Part shown: piece after piece, positions 7,122 to 52,853 of the stretch
Numbering within the stretch: position 1 is the stretch's first letter
Layout: the number at the start of each line of letters is the position of its first letter
Assembly: GCA_003140935.1 (NCBI GenBank)
Contig: PLLJ01000045.1
Location: forward strand, 2,767 to 66,766
Length of the DNA stretch: 64,000 nt
Reading direction: 5' to 3'
Source of the DNA: Candidatus Omnitrophota bacterium
GTDB taxonomy: Bacteria; Omnitrophota; Omnitrophia; Omnitrophales; Aquincolibacteriaceae
Position numbers and translations under genes: made by a program
Notes under the pieces: generated by a model
Database searches by the model: none
What the model saw: only the letters and a program-made list of their open reading frames with translations
What the model was told of the DNA's origin: nothing

Positions 7122-8945
7122 TTAAAACCGACGGCTCGAGAACTTGACGCCGAAGCGAAGGTCGTAATGGGGAATAAGCGGCGGTTCACCATCTTGTTTG
7201 GCGAACTGGGTCCCGCCCACTCCGACGAATTCGCCGAAGATCGCCGTCTTAGCAAGCCACTCGTTCTCTTTCCACCGTTCGGTCCTGAACGGCATGATCC
7301 TCAGACCTGCGGCGACAAAGTATTGGTTCTGGTAAAAGAACGAAAAGGAGGCATTATTGACGTGCTCGAAGCGCATGTAAGGCATCAAAACAAGTTCGTC
7401 ATTAATGTAGTTTTGCGGCAGCGGGATCCCGGGAAGTTTGATGCCCAGGGTGACTTCTGAGTTAGCAATGAAAGCATTAAAGCTTTTTTCGGAACTGAAA
7501 TTGGTCTTGGAAACGAAATAATTCCCGAAATATTCGCCCCAGACATACTGGTGAAGGTAATCCGAGAAAACCTCGGGTTTCGTCTCGCCAAGCGACGGCG
7601 GTTCTGTGCCCCATTCGTAGTAACACTGAAGACCCCAGACTAGATCGTTGTCACGGCTGTTCGTGATATTGTCCTTGATATTGAATTGATCACCGTACTT
7701 GATATAAAAACGGTAATTCCGCATCCACTCCAGGATCGGGATCCCCCCGAACGGCTGGAAATTCTCAACCCAGGGATTGCGGGCAAGGGGCCGCCATTCC
7801 AAACCTGCCCAAAGCTGTAAATTGCTGGCAAAGTCCGCGGAATCGGACTGCAGGCTGACCGTTTCTTCGATGAAGGGAGAGATATTATCCAGCGGAAAAC
7901 GGATCCCGCTAAAGACCAGGCGATTGGTCCAAAAACCCACCTGCGTGTCGAAGCCTTTGGCCGCGAGGTTGGTCTGGCGCCAAGAGGTCTCGCCGAAGGA
8001 TTGCCACGTGATCGCGGTGCCGCAAGGCGTTCCTTGGAGGACCCCGTACATCTTCTCACCGATGCCCATCTGGTCGGTGAATTTGAGGATGAGTTCTTCT
8101 TCTTTTTTGAATTGTGCGGGCGTTTTGACCTCGATGGGTTTTTCCGCCTCGGGCACATAAACCGGCGCGCTGCGCACGGCCTCGGCGAAATTCCCGCCCC
8201 GCGATTCCACATTCGCTTTACTCGCAATGATCGCGGTCATAGCCTCTTCAGAAGACGCAAACGCCCGGTCCCCGACCCAAAACAGATCCGTGACCTGGCC
8301 CTTCGCGTTGGGGATAGGAAGCTGGCGTATTTCGACCCCTTCGAAATTAGCCGTCTTGAGGTTCTTCTTGATGTAATCGTCGACAGCCTTCACGTCTTTA
8401 AGACCGGAAAGGTGACGGGACTTCACGGCCCCGCCGCCAAAATCCGTCACGATGGAAAATTCGGCGTCCTGCTCACGGGAGTGGCTCTTGAGGACCGGAA
8501 ATCCACGGACCTCGCTCATTTTATGATCGAGCTTTTGCGGGGCCGCGGCAAAAAATTGTTCGGCGAAAAGGTTGGTCGTATGTTCGACCCGGCCTTCAAG
8601 CTGAGAGGCGCGATGGATTCCGGCGGCCGGGGACCGAACGGGTTTTGTTTCTGCGACGGGTGGGGTCATAGGTTGAATCTCAGCCCCAGAAGAAGCCGCG
8701 GGTTGGACCTGAGCCGCAAGCGGGGGGACTTGCTCTGTGGTCACGGCCGGGACCGGGGCAGGTTTTGTTTCCGCGGCAGGTGGAGCAGCAGGTTGGGCCG
8801 CGGGTTGGGCCGCGGGTTGGGCTTCGGCCGTAGAAACGGCCGCGGGTTCTATTTCAACAACGGGAGTTTTTTCTTCGGCAAAAGATGGGAAAGCTGCGGA
8901 TAGAAAAAAAGCAATGAAGAATATTAAAAAGTTTTTAATTCTCAT
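7122..8945 (-). CDS. Secreted outer-membrane protein (~607 aa) with Pro/Ala-rich linker (AAQPAAQPAAQP) and C-terminal putative beta-barrel ending in F
   Basis: ORF track 7122..8984. Signal peptide MRIKNFLIFFIAFFLSAAFPSFA begins at 8945. Alternating amphipathic strands toward C-terminus, terminal ...FSSRRF. Confidence 0.6.
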   Translation of the reverse strand: MRIKNFLIFFIAFFLSAAFPSFAEEKTPVVEIEPAAVSTAEAQPAAQPAAQPAAPPAAETKPAPVPAVTTEQVPPLAAQVQPAASSGAEIQPMTPPVAETKPVRSPAAGIHRASQLEGRVEHTTNLFAEQFFAAAPQKLDHKMSEVRGFPVLKSHSREQDAEFSIVTDFGGGAVKSRHLSGLKDVKAVDDYIKKNLKTANFEGVEIRQLPIPNAKGQVTDLFWVGDRAFASSEEAMTAIIASKANVESRGGNFAEAVRSAPVYVPEAEKPIEVKTPAQFKKEEELILKFTDQMGIGEKMYGVLQGTPCGTAITWQSFGETSWRQTNLAAKGFDTQVGFWTNRLVFSGIRFPLDNISPFIEETVSLQSDSADFASNLQLWAGLEWRPLARNPWVENFQPFGGIPILEWMRNYRFYIKYGDQFNIKDNITNSRDNDLVWGLQCYYEWGTEPPSLGETKPEVFSDYLHQYVWGEYFGNYFVSKTNFSSEKSFNAFIANSEVTLGIKLPGIPLPQNYINDELVLMPYMRFEHVNNASFSFFYQNQYFVAAGLRIMPFRTERWKENEWLAKTAIFGEFVGVGGTQFAKQDGEPPLIPHYDLRFGVKFSSRRF

Positions 8946-14735: not shown

Positions 14736-15434
14736 TCATTTTTCTTCGAACCAGTCCACCTTGCCGGTCTTAACATCGTAGATCGCGAGAACGATCTTGA
14801 GCGTGCCTTGGGCGACCCGGTCCCGGATCTCTTCGCTGTTGGCCCGGAGGTCCCTTTCCACCTGGAAGACATTCTGTTTGATCACCTCATGGGTCAGCGC
14901 GGCGTCCTTCAGGTCCGGATTTTCCAGTTCTACTTCCTTCACGACGGGTATGATCTGTTCCTGAATATCGTGGAGACTCCCCTCAAGCTTCTCCCCCGAG
15001 ACCGCGGCCCCGACCGCTCCGCATTGCGTGTGACCCAGGACCACCAGCAGAGGCACATGCAAATGACCGGCCGCGTACTCCAGGGAACCGACCACACTGC
15101 TGTCCACGGCGATGTTCCCCGCGACCCGCACTACAAAAATATCTCCGATCCCCCGGTCAAAAACCGTTTCCACCGGCACCCTCGAATCCGCGCATCCGAG
15201 CACGACCGCAAACGGTTTTTGGCCGTTCACGGCGGTCTCTTCCCGTCTCGCATTATTTGCGTCGGGATGCTCCATCTTCATGGCGACAAAACGGGCGTTC
15301 CCTTCTTTGAGCAGCGCGAGCGCTTCCTCCGCGGTCTGTTCCGTGCCTTCGCCCGCGAACACCGGACCGGTCTGTGCTGCGATCCCTATCATCCCTATGG
15401 CAAAAAAAACGGCCCTGAAATTTTTTATCTTCAT
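14736..15434 (-). CDS. Beta-class carbonic anhydrase with signal peptide
   Basis: CADSRV...HTQCGAV zinc-ligand motifs; N-terminal signal MKIKNFRAVFFAIGMIGIAAQTGPVFA. Confidence 0.85.
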   Translation of the reverse strand: MKIKNFRAVFFAIGMIGIAAQTGPVFAGEGTEQTAEEALALLKEGNARFVAMKMEHPDANNARREETAVNGQKPFAVVLGCADSRVPVETVFDRGIGDIFVVRVAGNIAVDSSVVGSLEYAAGHLHVPLLVVLGHTQCGAVGAAVSGEKLEGSLHDIQEQIIPVVKEVELENPDLKDAALTHEVIKQNVFQVERDLRANSEEIRDRVAQGTLKIVLAIYDVKTGKVDWFEEK

Positions 15435-18211: not shown

Positions 18212-19879
18212 TCATGCTTTTTTATCCTCATATTTTTTCCTCCACGCTTTTTCATCCTCATATTTTTTTAGCCATGCCTTTTCACCTTTACGCTGATAAT
18301 CAGGATCATACCAAATAACATAGGATGCGCTGACCCCCTTGATCTGGCCCTTCTTATGCTTCTGCAGGTCATAGACAAATACGATCTTTGGATCGAGAAA
18401 TAGATTGTGATAGATGACGTACCGGTCATCAGGCGTAAAGCTTCCGCTATAACCGGACGCTTTCTCCTCCGGAAGCCCTTGTCCGTCGTTGTGGAGCAAT
18501 AATTCTGTTCCCGCAACATGATCTTTCAGGACATATTTCCAATCGTAGGTTTCAAGAGCATACCTTCCATCGGTCGATCCCGTATAATCGGAAACGGTCG
18601 GAGGCCGGTAACACGAAAGCTTGTAGAAAAAGTCATCTTTTGTCATGGTGAGTGTCGAGATCTCATGAGTATCTCGATGATAGACCCATACGATATCCTG
18701 ATAAGGATCCACTTGAATGTAGAGCGAATTTCCGTCTTTTGACCACTGGATAGAACCCGCGAAAAGAGAAGGCATGTCTTTGCGCCACACCGCAAGCGTA
18801 CTGATTTCGATCAAATCCAATTCTGTCGCGGCCTCTTTCTTAAGATCACGATTTCTGAGACAAAAAACAACGCGATCGCCTGCGGGAGAAAATCCCATGG
18901 AGTCGAGGGTTTGCTCAACCGGGAAGGAAAAAAGCTCTTTTTCCTGGAGCGTTACGGTATCCAACAAGATCATCACCTCGCGGGCTTTTCCGGGGTCCCG
19001 GGTCCCCAAAAGCAGGTATTGGCCATCAGGAGAAAATTGAGGGTCCTCCGTCAACGGTTTCGAAAGCAAGACGCGAGGGTCCTTTCCGTTGAGCTTTACG
19101 GAAGACAAAAAACCGTGCGGGTCTTTATAGTAGAGACGAAGATCCGAATCGATCCAATCCGTATAAGGAATTTGGGCAAGGGTTTCTTGGGGCCTGCGGT
19201 TCGGATGAGGATTTGTTACGTAAAGAAAGACGGAATAGATAAGACACGCTAAAATCAAGATCCCATATGATAATAAATTGGCCCGGATGACCGCTTTTTT
19301 TACAACGCCGGCATTATGATCTTTAAAAAAAGTCCTTATGATCAAGAATTCAAGCGCCACGGAAATAAAATAGGCGGGAATGAAACCGATCCCAATAGTG
19401 AGCGCGATGGTCCATAACCCGTCGAGTCCCGTGGGGGGTATCCACGCCGGGAAGGACAGAGGATAAATTTTACTCAGGACGGTTGGATGATGGAGCAATG
19501 AGAGAGAAATGACCGCCATCCCCATCTGCACAGCGAACATACAAAGCCAAGCAAGTGGGATACCGGCGAGGGTCGACGCTAAATTCGCCCACAAGGAAGG
19601 AAACACCCCGGACCGGTATTTGATTTGAAGCACTCGGGCTAATACCATGGCTTCTATAAGCACGATAGGGATCAACGCGATAAACATGGCGGGATAGGTC
19701 ACAAAGATCAAAGGCAGGCCGGCATCCGCATAAGCCAGCGAGGGGCACAAGAACACCAAGAAGCCCATTAAAAAAAAGGTGCGGGAACGCCGGGGCTCAA
19801 CATGCCGGTATGGGATATTCCTTTTAAACTTTTCAGTTAGGATATTCTCATCCATGGTTTGTCTCCGAATTTTGTCCAT
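18212..19879 (-). CDS. Polytopic membrane protein with C-terminal beta-propeller (PD40/TolB-like repeats) and Lys-rich repeated tail
   Basis: Several N-terminal TM helices; FSPDGQYLLLG-type repeats; C-terminal KKYEDEKAWRKKYEDKKA. Confidence 0.6.
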   Translation of the reverse strand: MDKIRRQTMDENILTEKFKRNIPYRHVEPRRSRTFFLMGFLVFLCPSLAYADAGLPLIFVTYPAMFIALIPIVLIEAMVLARVLQIKYRSGVFPSLWANLASTLAGIPLAWLCMFAVQMGMAVISLSLLHHPTVLSKIYPLSFPAWIPPTGLDGLWTIALTIGIGFIPAYFISVALEFLIIRTFFKDHNAGVVKKAVIRANLLSYGILILACLIYSVFLYVTNPHPNRRPQETLAQIPYTDWIDSDLRLYYKDPHGFLSSVKLNGKDPRVLLSKPLTEDPQFSPDGQYLLLGTRDPGKAREVMILLDTVTLQEKELFSFPVEQTLDSMGFSPAGDRVVFCLRNRDLKKEAATELDLIEISTLAVWRKDMPSLFAGSIQWSKDGNSLYIQVDPYQDIVWVYHRDTHEISTLTMTKDDFFYKLSCYRPPTVSDYTGSTDGRYALETYDWKYVLKDHVAGTELLLHNDGQGLPEEKASGYSGSFTPDDRYVIYHNLFLDPKIVFVYDLQKHKKGQIKGVSASYVIWYDPDYQRKGEKAWLKKYEDEKAWRKKYEDKKA

Positions 19880-19891
19880 CAGGTTGCGTTT

Positions 19892-20539
19892 TTATTGTGT
19901 CCCGTGTCCCCGGGATTCTTCCCACCGTTCCATGATCCCGAGCACTTCCCGGTCCGGCACGTCGTACCAATGCCGGTAGACCTGCGCCACAGCGTGAAAA
20001 ACGACCGGCATCTCGAGCACCACGAGTTCGTCAACGGTCCGGGCGATCTCCGTCGCGACGTCTTCACCGGCCACGGGCGCCGCGACCACGATCTTTTTCG
20101 CGCGCTTGTTCCTGCAGAGCAGGATCGCGGCCCGCATCGTCGCCCCCATCGCGATCCCGTCGTCCACCAAGATCACGGTCCTGCCTTTAAGGTCCGGCAA
20201 CGGCTTTCCTTTGCGGAGCGTCTTGACCCTCCGGAGGATCTCGAGCTTCTGCGCTTCCTGGATCGCCTTCGTTTCTTTTTCCGGGACCCGTGAGGCGACG
20301 CGCTCGATCAAAAAAGTACTGCCGTCCTCGGCGATGGCGCCAAACCCCGACTCAGGGTCGTCGGGAAAAGGCAATTTCCGCGAGACCACCATGGAAAAAC
20401 GGGCGCCGAGAGACCGGGCGACGTAATACCCAACCTCCACCCCGCCTCGCGGAATTCCCAGGACCGTCACGCCCTTGTCTTTATATTTCTCAAGCGCCAG
20501 GGCCAGTTGCTCCCCGGCGTCCTTCCTGTCCTCGAACAT
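19892..20539 (-). CDS. Predicted phosphoribosyltransferase (PRT type I fold)
   Basis: ORF track 19892..20707. Likely start MFEDRKDAGEQLALAL at 20539. VILVDDGIAMGATMRAA PRPP-binding motif. Confidence 0.7.
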   Translation of the reverse strand: MFEDRKDAGEQLALALEKYKDKGVTVLGIPRGGVEVGYYVARSLGARFSMVVSRKLPFPDDPESGFGAIAEDGSTFLIERVASRVPEKETKAIQEAQKLEILRRVKTLRKGKPLPDLKGRTVILVDDGIAMGATMRAAILLCRNKRAKKIVVAAPVAGEDVATEIARTVDELVVLEMPVVFHAVAQVYRHWYDVPDREVLGIMERWEESRGHGTQ

Positions 20540-20555
20540 AGATCCGCATTCCTTG

Positions 20556-23690: not shown

Positions 23691-24563
23691 TCAATGCCTG
23701 GCTGAAGGCGGCATTCCGGGGCCGAAAGATCCAGTTTGGGCCGGGAATTTTTCAAAAAATATCTTTTTATCAAAATGGACGATGAGAGCCGCGATCAGGA
23801 TGAGCACGACCGTCTCAATGCATTTCGCGGCCTGCCCCATTTCGAGGAGCCCCTGGCAGTTGATCACGGCGTGGAACAGGACCGCCGGCAGGATATGGCC
23901 CTTATTCTTATACCATAACCAGTTGAGGATGAACGCCGCCGGCAGGATGCTCACGAAGAAGTTGAGAGCGAACCAAGGGTGGGTTAAAAGCGTGTGGTGA
24001 TAGTAATGATCGATCAAGAACAAGGGGATGTGCCAGAAAGCCCATAAGGCGGCGAAGATCCATGTCGCTTTGAAGAAAGTGCGTTCCCCGCGCAGGCTGT
24101 CCATGCCGTAACCTTTCCAGCCCAATTCCTCGGTCAAGGCAGCCCCGAAGAACATCACGGGAAGCGGAACAAACCCCGACGCATCATGAACGGTTCCGGC
24201 CATGCTGAGCTGGCCCAGGGACTGGCCGAAGAGGAGATGAGACAGGAACACCGAAAGGACCACCACAAGGGGCATGAGAAAAAAGACGGCCGGAAGGGTC
24301 GAGGGTTGGATCGATCTGAGATCAAAAAGCCGGTCCTGAAAATTCCGCTTGAGCCCGGCGTTCTTCGAAGCGAAGATCAGCCCCAGGGCCGCGCATAAAG
24401 GGCCGAAGAGTCCCGCGAGTTCGAGGACGGAAAGCCATGCCTTCGCCCCGCCGCCCGGCTGATAACTGAAATAAGCCGCCCCAAGCCAGGCGGCCCAGGT
24501 GATCAGATTGGCAATAAAGAAAAATTGAACCGGCTTGTAGACATAAGGTTTTTCCATAAGCAT
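23691..24563 (-). CDS. CPBP/CAAX-type intramembrane metalloprotease family protein
   Basis: TEELGWKGY (EExxxR-like), FWHIP, and HAVIN motifs in TM helices. Confidence 0.7.
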   Translation of the reverse strand: MLMEKPYVYKPVQFFFIANLITWAAWLGAAYFSYQPGGGAKAWLSVLELAGLFGPLCAALGLIFASKNAGLKRNFQDRLFDLRSIQPSTLPAVFFLMPLVVVLSVFLSHLLFGQSLGQLSMAGTVHDASGFVPLPVMFFGAALTEELGWKGYGMDSLRGERTFFKATWIFAALWAFWHIPLFLIDHYYHHTLLTHPWFALNFFVSILPAAFILNWLWYKNKGHILPAVLFHAVINCQGLLEMGQAAKCIETVVLILIAALIVHFDKKIFFEKFPAQTGSFGPGMPPSARH

Positions 24564-24700
24564 CTCCGGGCCCGGCTCATCTATGTTTTACGTGTCCCGT
24601 GCGAAAACGAGAACCCCAAGTTCCCGTGAGCCCGCCGAAAACATGGATTTCCGTCCGGGATGCTTCATGAGCGCCTTCGCTTCGCCCCGGTCCTGCTTTT

Positions 24701-24916
24701 TTATGCCCGCTGCGGGTTCATCAACTTAAACCAGGGACATCGCTTGACGCAAAATAGCAAACCCCTGCCCTTCGCTTTGGAACAACCCGCTTTGTCCAGA
24801 GAAGACGCGACTTCCCAGCATTTCCTGCCCGTTGACGGAAAGGCGGCGCATTGGATCTTGGTGGCTCTCGGGCAATCCCAGAATTCCCAGCAGTTCTGCG
24901 GTCTCGGATCCGTCAT
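24701..24916 (-). CDS. Small cysteine-rich protein (71 aa) with two CWE motifs, resembling a two-CW-type domain
   Basis: MTDPRPQNCWEFWDCP...KCWEVAS...GC...FCVKRC: 8 Cys. GGGGAAAAAGG RBS-like stretch about 8 nt upstream of the ATG. Confidence 0.45.
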   Translation of the reverse strand: MTDPRPQNCWEFWDCPRATKIQCAAFPSTGRKCWEVASSLDKAGCSKAKGRGLLFCVKRCPWFKLMNPQRA

Positions 24917-25199
24917 AGACCTTTTTCCCCTTTCTGCTTTTTGTCGAACGGTCCCATTTTCTCTTTCTTATTTTGACCGCCTTCGCGGAACCCCTTTATC
25001 AAATAGTAACACTATTTTACGAAGATAGGACGAAGAACAAAGCGTTTTGAGGATGAGTCGAACGGTGCTGTCCAACTTTGGGCTCTATATCCTATCCGCC
25101 AAATTTCGCGGACGGATCCGTCCACGCCGTGTGGCGGATAGGGTATAGGGTTTGTCACTCATTCCGGGGTATTGCGCTCGCTTTACGGAATCCCCTCTA

Positions 25200-25300
25200 C
25201 GTTTTCGATGGAATCCCCGGAGTGCCGGGCCCCGTTCTACTGATCTTGATATTTTATAAGCGCCAGGGCCAGTTGTCGCCCGGTATCTTTTCTGTCCTTG
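25200..25300 (-). pseudogene. Duplicated 5' fragment of the phosphoribosyltransferase gene (first ~21 codons plus ~40 nt of upstream similarity), truncated by stops
   Basis: Reverse complement of 25238..25300 translates MFKDRKDTGRQLALALIKYQDQ* versus the true gene MFEDRKDAGEQLALALEKYKDK. About 70% nt identity to 20445..20545. Confidence 0.6.
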
Positions 25301-25375
25301 AACATAACCCCGAGTCCCGAATCCCGAGTCCCTGTATTATTGTGTCTCGCGTCCCGAGTTGCGAGTCCCCCGCTT

Positions 25376-26080
25376 TTATTGCTCCGCTTTCATGGGAACA
25401 AAAATGACGGGGAGCAGGGACTCCCTCTCAAAACCCGTATCCGTTCGTGTAATGCGGACGAGCTCCTGGGAAGAACCTCCCACGGGAATCACCATCCGCC
25501 CTCCGACCTTCAACTGCTCCAGCAATGCTTCCGGGACTTCGGTGGGCGCCGCCGTGACCAGGATCACATCGAACGGCGCATGTTGGGGCCATCCCTGATT
25601 GCCGTCCCCCCATTTGACTTCTACGTTGTTGTATCCGAGCTGTGTCAATTTCTGGGTCGCCGCATCCGCAAGTTCTCTTATGATTTCCACACTATAAACT
25701 TCTTTGGCGAGCTCGCCAAGGATGGCGGCTTGATATCCCGAGCCTGTTCCGATCTCAAGCACGCGGTCCTCCGGTCCGACAAGGCCTTTCTCCGTCATGT
25801 AGGCCACGATATAGGGTTGCGAGATCGTCTGCCCGCGGCCGATCGGGAGAGGCTGGTCCGCGTAAGCCGCGCCGCGAAGAAGCGCCGGAACGAACAAATG
25901 GCGCGGGACCTTCCGCATGGCGTTGAGCGTTCTTTGATCGCGGACGCCGCGCAGGACGATCTGTTCGTCCACCATCTTTTGCCGCGCCGAGACGAACGCG
26001 TTCTCTTCCGCTAAGACCGGTCGCGGCAAAAGCGATGCTGTAAAACAAGCCAGATAAAAGATCTTTGCTGTGCTTATCAT
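25376..26080 (-). CDS. pcm: Protein-L-isoaspartate O-methyltransferase with signal peptide
   Basis: TISQPYIVAYM, LEIGTGSGYQAA SAM-binding motif. Confidence 0.85.
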   Translation of the reverse strand: MISTAKIFYLACFTASLLPRPVLAEENAFVSARQKMVDEQIVLRGVRDQRTLNAMRKVPRHLFVPALLRGAAYADQPLPIGRGQTISQPYIVAYMTEKGLVGPEDRVLEIGTGSGYQAAILGELAKEVYSVEIIRELADAATQKLTQLGYNNVEVKWGDGNQGWPQHAPFDVILVTAAPTEVPEALLEQLKVGGRMVIPVGGSSQELVRITRTDTGFERESLLPVIFVPMKAEQ

Positions 26081-28007: not shown

Positions 28008-28246
28008 AACTTTTCTATCTGCGTGTTCCAAGCCCCTGAAACTATACGGGTCCCGCACTGAACAACCCATAAGACCTATTGGAAGTTTAGTGCGCCATGA
28101 TTCTCTTTTTTTAAAAAATAAACGGGTAATCATGACAGTCCAAGTCGCCATTCAAGAAAAAAATGAAGACTTGGGCGGCACTCGCTTTCGATAAAATATT
28201 TTAATGAGAGCCAGTGCCGAGTTACGAGTCCCGAGTCCCCGGAATT

Positions 28247-29383: not shown

Positions 29384-29491
29384 AGGCCTTCCGTCGCTAT
29401 CCCCTTTTAATGTCCTACGAGTCCCTAGTCCCGTCTTTATTTATCCCGAGTCCCTGTATTATTGTGTCCCGTGTCCCAAGTGCAGCGTCAT

Positions 29492-30702: not shown

Positions 30703-31297
30703 TTTTTTTATCCGGTCAATCGGCTCATCTATCTTTTTTCTGACTTTTTTCCTCTCCTCAACCAGGACAATGCCATGATTGATTTAAAAATAAAAAAGGC
30801 GCTACCGCTGTTATGAAGTTATCGACAATAGTAACGCCTCTATTGATAAAAACTCCCCCGCCTGCGATTAAACCGAATGTCGCTTTTGAGGGTAAATGCG
30901 GCATCGCATCCAAGGAATGGCTATTTCTGACGCGGATCGGACAAGATTGTCAAAATCTTGCCGAAGCCGCCCTGGTTTTACATTATTCAAATCAATCGGA
31001 AAACTAGGGCTGCACTAATTTTCTTTTAAAAAAATTTATCGAAAATCAGTGCGTACCAAAGCATTGGGCTTTGATGCATTCAACCGGTCCCCGGGGTGCC
31101 AGCTTGTCCGCCTCTGGCGGAGTACTGTTCTATTCCGCTTCCGGTTGCCATATATCATATCCGCCAAATTTCACGGACGAATCCGTCCACGCTGTGTGGC
31201 GGATATGATATACGGTCTGTCACCGCCCCGCGTCTTTTGTCCTCGTGCCCCGAGCTACGAGTCCCGAGTCCCGTCTTCATTTGTCCCGATTCCCCGT

Positions 31298-31834
31298 TTA
31301 TATCTTTTTCGATTCCTGTTCCAGGCGCTTCATTTCTTCCAGGCTCGAGTTCTCTTCCCCGGCAATCTGTTGTCGGTTGTCCCCATCTTTATTCGAGTCC
31401 CGAGGAGCGAGTCCCGAGTCCCGCGGTGTTTCGTTCGAGTCCCGAGCTACGAGTCCCGAGTCCCGTGGTTTTTCGTCCGTCGTCTTGGCCTCAGGGGAAG
31501 AAAGTCCTTTTTTTGAGTCCTGTTCCAGGCGCTTCATTTCTTCCAGACTCGGGTTCTTTTCCCCGGTAGTCTGTGGTCGGTTGTCCCCATCTTTATTCGA
31601 GTCTCGAGCTACGAGTCCCGAGTCCCTGTCTTTATTCGAGTCCCGAGGAGCGAGTCCCGAGTCCCGCGGCGTTTCGTCAGCCGCAGCTTTATTCGCTCGC
31701 CGGGCCGCGATCGCCGTCCTCGCCGCCCGGATGCCAAAGATCGCGTGCGCCGGAGGCGCTCCGAGAAGAAACGTCCCCGTCACCAGTCCCGCCATCACGA
31801 TTTTAAAAGTTTTCGACATCTCCAACCTCCCCAT
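31298..31834 (-). CDS. Secreted tandem-repeat protein (RDSGLAPRDSNKDGDNR repeats), encoded by a ~230-bp x2 tandem DNA repeat built from the GAGTCCCGAGTCCC motif
   Basis: Signal peptide MSKTFKIVMAGLVTGTFLLGAPPAHA; two ~80-aa repeat units; the underlying DNA is a tandem duplication. Confidence 0.5.
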   Translation of the reverse strand: MGRLEMSKTFKIVMAGLVTGTFLLGAPPAHAIFGIRAARTAIAARRANKAAADETPRDSGLAPRDSNKDRDSGLVARDSNKDGDNRPQTTGEKNPSLEEMKRLEQDSKKGLSSPEAKTTDEKPRDSGLVARDSNETPRDSGLAPRDSNKDGDNRQQIAGEENSSLEEMKRLEQESKKI

Positions 31835-37211: not shown

Positions 37212-37267
37212 GTGAATCCCCCCTTTTCTTTAAAAAGTTTTTCCGTTTTGGACTAGTACTGTTCTCC

Positions 37268-37412
37268 ATTTGATTTTCCGCCACAATTCTTCGGACGGAT
37301 CCGTCCTTTGGCGGATAGGGGTTAACAGCACTTGTTCTCAAAAAAAACTTAAAGGTTAACAAGTGCTGTCCAAGTCGCCCTTAATAAAATAAAAACGAAG
37401 ACTTGGGCCGTA
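37268..37412. repeat. Composite of an R2 palindromic element (ccgccacaattcttcggacggatccgtcctttggcgg) plus an R1-type H1 hairpin (gtccaagtcgcc...gacttgggc)
   Basis: Inverse-orientation match to 52722..52830. Confidence 0.7.
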
Positions 37413-52721: not shown

Positions 52722-52830
52722 AGTCCAAGTCACCATCCATGTGAAGAAATAAAGACTTGGGCAGTACTGTTAACCCCTATCCGCCGAAGGACGGATCCGT
52801 CCGAAGAATTGTGGCGGAAAATCAAATGGA
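52722..52830. repeat. H1 hairpin + R2 palindromic element composite (inverse of 37268..37412)
   Basis: gtccaagtcacc...gacttgggc, then cccctatccgccgaaggacggatccgtccgaagaattgtggcgg. Confidence 0.7.
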
Positions 52831-52853
52831 GAACAGTGCTAGCCAAGAAAAAA

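Follow-up and report, generated by a model that had tools for sequence, protein, structure and literature searches.

Beside pcm, the intact gene for protein-L-isoaspartate O-methyltransferase, the window analysed here (64,000 nt of Candidatus Omnitrophota contig PLLJ01000045.1, GCA_003140935.1, positions 2,767–66,766 of the forward strand) carries a short, interrupted second version of the 5′ end of its phosphoribosyltransferase (PRT) gene. This stub (Table 1) is an ordinary gene remnant in a variable region, and is probably the non-functional scar of a separate PRT copy, left when the interval between pcm and RtcB was reshuffled in this Omnitrophota lineage.

Table 1. Features of the gap between pcm and the CPBP protease gene, with related genes and loci. 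Positions are those of the window unless a locus is named.
Feature	Position	Strand	Basis or remark
pcm (protein-L-isoaspartate O-methyltransferase), intact, upstream of the stub	25376..26080	-	Pfam PF01135, E 4.5e-61
GGGAC-module spacer after pcm	25318..25375	-	Spacer comparison
GAGTCCC units near the stub	25312, 25326, 25363
PRT-type ribosome-binding leader GGACTCGGGGTT	25306..25317	-	Part of the nhmmer match; near-copy in tandem just upstream
PRT 5′ stub	25237..25305	-	22 codons MFKDRKDTGRQLALALIKYQDQ and TAG stop at 25237-25239
Possible decayed continuation of the stub	25206..25236	-	nhmmer posterior 0.5-0.7; alone not significant
R2, REP-like imperfect palindrome	25086..25158	.	Hairpin -40.9 kcal/mol, z = -7.0
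R5, putative upstream element of the two-CW gene	25011..25056	-	TAAAAT/TAGAAT box; promoter-like
Two-CW gene, 71 aa, unannotated	24701..24916	-	Orthologues in relatives, dN/dS, NF045718 alignment
Two-CW orthologue loci	L108 2468-2680; L110 13563-13775; L112 4100-4312
ATGAAG, first two codons of a former ProCA (carbonic anhydrase) gene	24663..24668	-	Three-way alignment
GTGTCCCGTG unit, spacer upstream of CPBP	24592..24601	+	Motif positions
CPBP (Rce1-like) protease gene	23691..24563	-	Pfam PF02517, NCBIfam NF041656; heads the block that runs to FMN reductase
Resident intact PRT, 215 aa	19892..20539	-	Pfam PF00156, E 9.8e-15; stub counterpart 20474-20539

The minus-strand DNA of the stub (25305..25237) is ATGTTCAAGGACAGAAAAGATACCGGGCGACAACTGGCCCTGGCGCTTATAAAATATCAAGATCAGTAG, translating as MFKDRKDTGRQLALALIKYQDQ*; the resident PRT begins MFEDRKDAGEQLALALEKYKDKG. 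In a pairwise alignment of the 22 sense codons (25240-25305) with the start of the resident gene, 52 of 66 nt and 16 of 22 amino acids are identical, including an 18-nt identical core (CAACTGGCCCTGGCGCTT) and a shared QLALAL core. A repeat search of the window recovers the pair as family D17 (63 nt, 81% identity, spacing 4766 nt), direct repeats at 20478-20540 and 25244-25306 of which the former makes up the working 5′ end of PRT. When the PRT protein was compared to the whole window by tblastn, the stub was found at E 2.6e-5 with no other significant site, and an nhmmer profile of six sequences, the PRT 5′ regions of the window and of five relatives, matched 25317..25206 at E 1.4e-16, the next match in the window being at E 0.35. 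Chance or low-complexity similarity was rejected on these values. The diverged PRT 5′ copy that a preliminary description of the window had put beside pcm is therefore present, with the translation as written there, and the similarity is one of coding sequence rather than being confined to low-complexity repeats.

The nhmmer alignment covers a 12-nt ribosome-binding leader, codons 1–22, an 8-nt insertion (gtagaacg, 25232-25239) which overlaps the TAG stop and shifts the frame after codon 22, and about 27 further nt (25206-25231) weakly resembling PRT codons 23–31, including the GIP motif, in the shifted frame. The whole PRT-like fragment thus comes to about 110 bases. The preliminary description gave it about 100 bp, which is roughly right, although most of the length beyond the 22 codons lies 3′ of them; its further proposal, that the promoter-proximal part of the resident gene had been copied too, did not hold up. 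When the 80 nt preceding the stub and the 81 nt following it were aligned locally with the flanks of the resident PRT and two orthologues, the scores were no better than those of shuffled sequences, so the resident promoter-proximal region was not duplicated; only the 12-nt leader is PRT-like, and it is of the variant seen in L112 and L116. No further pieces of PRT were found in the gap or elsewhere in the 64-kb window by tblastn or by an ORF self-search, and in the self-search of all ORFs of at least 100 aa the stub was the sole gene-fragment copy in 64 kb. Across 941 nt of the locus, eight independently assembled contigs (ENA, JGI, and Logan data) are 100% identical, with a single base different in a ninth, and an assembly artefact was rejected on the strength of this agreement.

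In several respects the stub resembles pseudogene remnants at bacterial rearrangement or deletion junctions: it is a short disabled piece in a non-coding gap, with an intact homologue elsewhere, absent in relatives, in a region of variable gene order. Its homology to PRT is significant, it stops after codon 22 with the rest of the gene missing, and nothing like it follows pcm in the related loci L107, L108, and L109. Unlike such remnants, it starts with a leader and a start codon of its own, and its divergence from the resident gene is that of other species' genes; together, these two properties point to a second allele rather than a simple recent duplication.

The preliminary description took the stub for a duplicate of the resident PRT, and a recent intragenomic duplication of the resident 5′ end, followed by neutral decay, would be a version of this: the copy might be templated filler DNA from a deletion junction, or else a product of recombination between repeats. 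The two sequences are just 4.8 kb apart on the same strand and have the QLALAL core in common, and many of the changes run from G/C to A/T, as decay predicts. However, the stub is equally far from the resident (52 of 66 nt) and from the orthologues of other species (53, 50, 51, 51, and 54 of 66 for L110, L111, L112, L114, and L116, respectively). The PRT genes share 52 to 62 of the 66 nt among themselves, and the resident shares 57 to 62 with its four closest orthologues. Stub and resident differ at 14 sites, and at four of these (in codons 3, 10, 21, and 22) the stub carries a base found in relatives, the positions of this type including K3 and the KDQ ending. The leader is likewise another variant: that of the stub, GGACTCGGGGTT, matches the L112 leader (GGACTCGGGACT) at 10 of 12 positions, with CGGGGTT also common to L116, while the resident leader (AGGAATGCGGATCT) is of the type AAGGAAYGCGGAYCY found in L110 and L111. 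Finally, generic GGGAC units apart, no repeat common to both sites flanks both copies. A recent duplication is therefore distinctly unlikely. Given that its distance to the resident is no smaller than that to the orthologues, and that its leader is of a different variant, the stub is most likely, as far as 66 nt can indicate, what remains of a separate and diverged PRT copy.

Compared to PRT genes, the stub has dS values of 0.43–1.46, at or above the between-species range (0.08–0.48 across these 22 codons, and 0.31 between the window and L110 for the complete gene), and dN values of 0.15–0.18, about three times the orthologue value. A chimeric origin of the resident PRT itself was rejected, its identity to relatives having no step along the gene.

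The dN/dS of the stub against PRT genes is 0.10–0.42, a ratio resting on about 14 changes; a value below 1 fits a stub descended from a functional diverged allele as well as one that is itself under some constraint. If the latter, the stub might be a functional short ORF or leader; its translation would then act with the G-rich leader and the R2 hairpin to adjust read-through from pcm to the two-CW and CPBP genes. In favor of this, the ATG is intact, a ribosome-binding leader of the PRT type precedes it, and 22 sense codons follow before the stop, with a very stable hairpin 78 nt downstream. In a leader peptide or attenuator, alternative hairpins and a U-tract terminator would come after the short ORF, with conservation in relatives; here, R2 is followed by no U-tract, the stub region folds no better than shuffled sequences (z = 0.31), and the stub is missing from all of the relatives examined. 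There is also no Rfam match, and R5, directly upstream of the two-CW gene, already looks like that gene's own element. Such a regulatory role is hardly likely at all.

Comparison with related loci places the stub in a region of variable gene order. Orthologues of pcm with 86–89% identity are found in Omnitrophota assemblies (L107, L108, and L109); in all three, pcm is directly followed by a nitroreductase gene, and the stub is absent there and elsewhere in those loci. Neither a nitroreductase gene nor a trace of one occurs in the window, the gap between pcm and CPBP included. Orthologues of PRT, with 75–86% identity, lie directly upstream of RtcB in eight relatives (the comparison loci include L110, L111, L112, L114, L116, and two ERZ1426815 contigs), which identifies the resident PRT as the positional orthologue. 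What precedes PRT is far less constant: among these nine genomes (the window and the eight relatives) the upstream gene takes six forms: an FMN reductase in the window and two relatives, and elsewhere one of three genes of 102, 361, and 370 aa, a guanylate cyclase, or a toxin-antitoxin pair. PRT thus has a hotspot of gene-order change or insertion at its 5′ boundary, and the stub serves as a flag for this boundary of the PRT-RtcB pair in one Omnitrophota clade. The surroundings of pcm, the two-CW gene, ProCA, PRT, and RtcB are arranged differently in every related Omnitrophota contig examined. This variability, with the absence of the stub from the three relatives having pcm and nitroreductase, bears out, in outline, the preliminary interpretation of the stub as a footprint of rearrangement; the causal part given there to the repeats is conjectural. 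The synteny check proposed with it, whether PRT was once a neighbor of pcm, came out negative: PRT adjoins pcm in none of the relatives examined, and is downstream of pcm in none of 80 metagenome pcm loci of at most 65% identity.

A synteny comparison through 12 PRT homologues from a genome collection (36–67% identity, many of them from other phyla and from archaea) gave no neighbors in common. The best of these, with about 60–67% identity, include assemblies bearing the labels Halobacteria, Altiarchaeota, Methanophagales, Micrarchaeota, and Anaerolineales (loci L015-L026); this taxonomic scatter of the best homologues suggests either a wide horizontal spread of the PRT family or binning errors. 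In the window only, an orphan membrane protein gene (18212-19879, minus strand; a 555-aa ORF, 547 aa in source annotations) lies between PRT and RtcB. It was dropped as a synteny probe, being an orphan with a single database homologue at 42% identity.

The comparisons establish that the stub is homologous to PRT, truncated, and missing from relatives, and that gene order varies; its lack of function, and the order and nature of the following events, we infer. A PRT copy with its own leader may once have stood after pcm, or a piece of one may have been placed there; this second copy could have been an earlier occupant of the site, or a segment imported from a related strain. The 8-nt insertion with its in-frame stop would have disabled it, and everything past the first 22 to about 31 codons would have been lost. 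Reshuffling between pcm and RtcB would also have removed the nitroreductase gene found behind pcm in relatives, broken the two-CW/ProCA junction just past ATGAAG, and set the block of genes from CPBP to FMN reductase upstream of the resident PRT. Four observations count against a scar: a full PRT gene beside pcm is seen in no relative, so that the predecessor state is unobserved; the stub retains an intact ATG, its leader, and 22 sense codons; its dN/dS against PRT genes is below 1; and the population copies are all alike, with no variation to reveal present-day selection.

The block just mentioned, which occupies the space between stub and PRT (CPBP, HD-GYP, VTT, a small gene, and FMN reductase), raises the possibility of a Campbell-type insertion. 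Here, a circularized segment of about 4.8 kb would have entered an ancestral pcm-leader-PRT-RtcB arrangement through one crossover inside the 5′ end of PRT, bringing with it R2, R5, the two-CW gene, CPBP through FMN reductase, and the leader and 5′ end of PRT from a relative with FMN reductase before PRT. The incoming 5′ end would now head the resident PRT, with the original one displaced beside pcm. Much of the geometry would fit: the block is bounded exactly by direct repeats of about 66 nt with a spacing of 4766 nt, of which one is the 5′ end of the intact gene; the 18-nt identical core is a possible crossover point; the two copies bear different leaders, as expected of donor and recipient; and in an ERZ1426815 contig, the genes from CPBP to FMN reductase run contiguously into PRT. 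One event and one ancestral PRT would suffice. The arrangement recalls the attL/attR duplications of genomic islands, in which direct repeats flank a multi-gene block, with one working gene end and one displaced partial copy. It differs from those in that the duplicated part is the 5′ end of a protein-coding gene, rather than a 3′ end or a tRNA, that identity between the repeats is only about 80%, and that part of the block looks native. Pfam assigns families to four of the six block genes (FMN reductase, VTT/DedA, HD-GYP, and Rce1-like), the 153-aa and two-CW products having none, and finds no integrase or recombinase domain among them. In addition, homologous recombination would work poorly on 66–100 nt with about 80% identity, and the relatives compared show pcm followed by nitroreductase (in three cases) but never by PRT. 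Finally, the two-CW gene and the start of ProCA also lie within the pcm-RtcB interval of L108, and so look native rather than imported. An insertion of this kind is rather unlikely, and the scar of a separate PRT copy remains the preferred reading of the stub.

The gap between CPBP and pcm as a whole had been described as an 810-bp intergenic junkyard of repeats. The repeats are there, at the positions first given for the GTGTCCCGTG module, R5, R2, and the GAGTCCC units (Table 1), but not all of the 812 bases are intergenic, and "junkyard" is too strong a word: what was annotated as empty hides a conserved gene for a 71-aa protein with two Cys-Trp motifs (NCWEFW and KCWEV), together with its probable upstream element. 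Orthologues of this two-CW gene in L108, L112, and L110 have 90, 82, and 79% aa identity, respectively, and pairwise dN/dS values of 0.09–0.39 at dS 0.33–0.53; by these sequence comparisons it is a real conserved gene under purifying selection. Gene callers in the source assemblies either skip it or call the opposite strand. Like proteins of NCBIfam NF045718, the 71-aa product has two Cys-Trp motifs and aligns over nearly the whole of the 80-position model (positions 1–78, E 0.0024); unlike them, it scores 18.2 bits, under the curated cut-off of 35. A literature search on two-CW proteins or Omnitrophota intergenic repeats turned up nothing relevant.

R5 is best read as a conserved promoter-like upstream element of the two-CW gene, a reading suggested by two sets of observations. 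R5, the spacer, and the two-CW gene are conserved together in L112 (87% over 363 nt), and copies of R5 elsewhere (31888, 32255, and L107 9873-9918) lie 5–95 nt upstream of start codons, with a TAGAAT/TAAAAT box in common. Counts of predicted sigma-70 promoters and intrinsic terminators were not above those in shuffled sequences.

In L108 and L110, the two-CW gene is followed by ProCA. Homology of the window with these two loci spans the two-CW gene, the spacer, a ribosome-binding site, and the ATGAAG with which ProCA would begin, and then ends, marking a second rearrangement breakpoint in the same gap. A longer ProCA stub was rejected, there being no similarity beyond these six bases. The functional ProCA of the window is at 14736-15434, with a different upstream sequence.

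A comparable fragment occurs in L107, where a 1.1-kb gap contains a CPBP 5′ stub (7281-7388) of about 35 codons, with 88% nt identity, followed by a stop; gene remnants anchored at the start codon thus recur in the clade. It is conceivable, though very unlikely, that the three 5′ ends (PRT here, CPBP in L107, and the ATGAAG of ProCA) are not random deletion scars at all, but by-products of a specific, recurrent exchange at gene starts in the hotspot upstream of PRT/RtcB. If so, such a process might be promoted by the GGGACTC leader modules, which are strand-biased and potentially capable of forming G-quadruplexes, or by REP-like hairpins.

R2 has properties in common with REP/BIME elements: it is an imperfect palindrome of about 70 nt predicted to form a very stable hairpin, has several dispersed intergenic copies (including 31151-31223, 89% identity, and L107 9587-9663, 87%), and shows stem changes that preserve pairing, two stem pairs being changed on both sides among the copies. 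It has no sequence relation to enterobacterial REPs, and in the 64 kb no RAYT transposase was seen in association with it. Rfam gave no gathering-level match in the 64 kb, the sole sub-threshold one being a spurious miRNA model on the R2 hairpin. Other dispersed repeats, all intergenic, are found at 1445-1489, 37246-37332, 52763-52849, 14555-14728/39649-39822, and 28053-28182; they include hairpin variants with the R2 core GGACGGATCCGTCC, an 87-nt inverted pair (93% identity), and a 174-nt pair (86%). These dispersed intergenic families look like miniature mobile elements. Short repeats of this kind, both the REP-like hairpin and the strand-biased GGGACTC modules, could confuse annotation and assembly of these genomes.

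The GAGTCCC motif (GGGACTC on the other strand) occurs 29 times in the window, compared to 9.7 ± 3.1 expected, with a strand split of 25 to 4; its sites are in several spacers, inside the gene for a 178-aa repeat protein (31298-31834), and at the PRT 3′ end, whose GHGTQ* it encodes. After pcm, the first two GGGAC units are shared with relatives, whose pcm 3′ flanks bear CGGGGGAC units, and a 39-nt module (25321-25359) recurs at 29443-29481 (92% identity across the 39 nt in blastn). Where such units adjoin the stub, they consist at least in part of the PRT-type leader itself, in two tandem copies. This tandem leader (GGGACTCGGGATTCGGGACTCGGGG, 25309-25333, minus strand) has four G-tracts with 4-nt loops, and so conforms, on the sense strand, to the G-quadruplex motif rule (four runs of at least three G, loops of 1–7 nt), GGGACUCGGGAUUCGGGACUCGGGG being the candidate G-quadruplex sequence predicted in the leader repeats.

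Some of these modules extend into coding sequence. The module GGGACACGGGACACAATAA is found at 19892-19915, 25337-25355, and 29443-29481, corresponding to the PRT C-terminal tail and stop (GHGTQ*) and to two intergenic spacers; after RWEKE, the tails of PRT orthologues vary, as if reading into spacer modules. The 178-aa repeat protein, encoded on the minus strand, is secreted-looking, with RDSGL(V/A)ARDSN repeats encoded by GAGTCCCGA units that also fill nearby spacers, and its gene contains a 204-bp tandem duplication.
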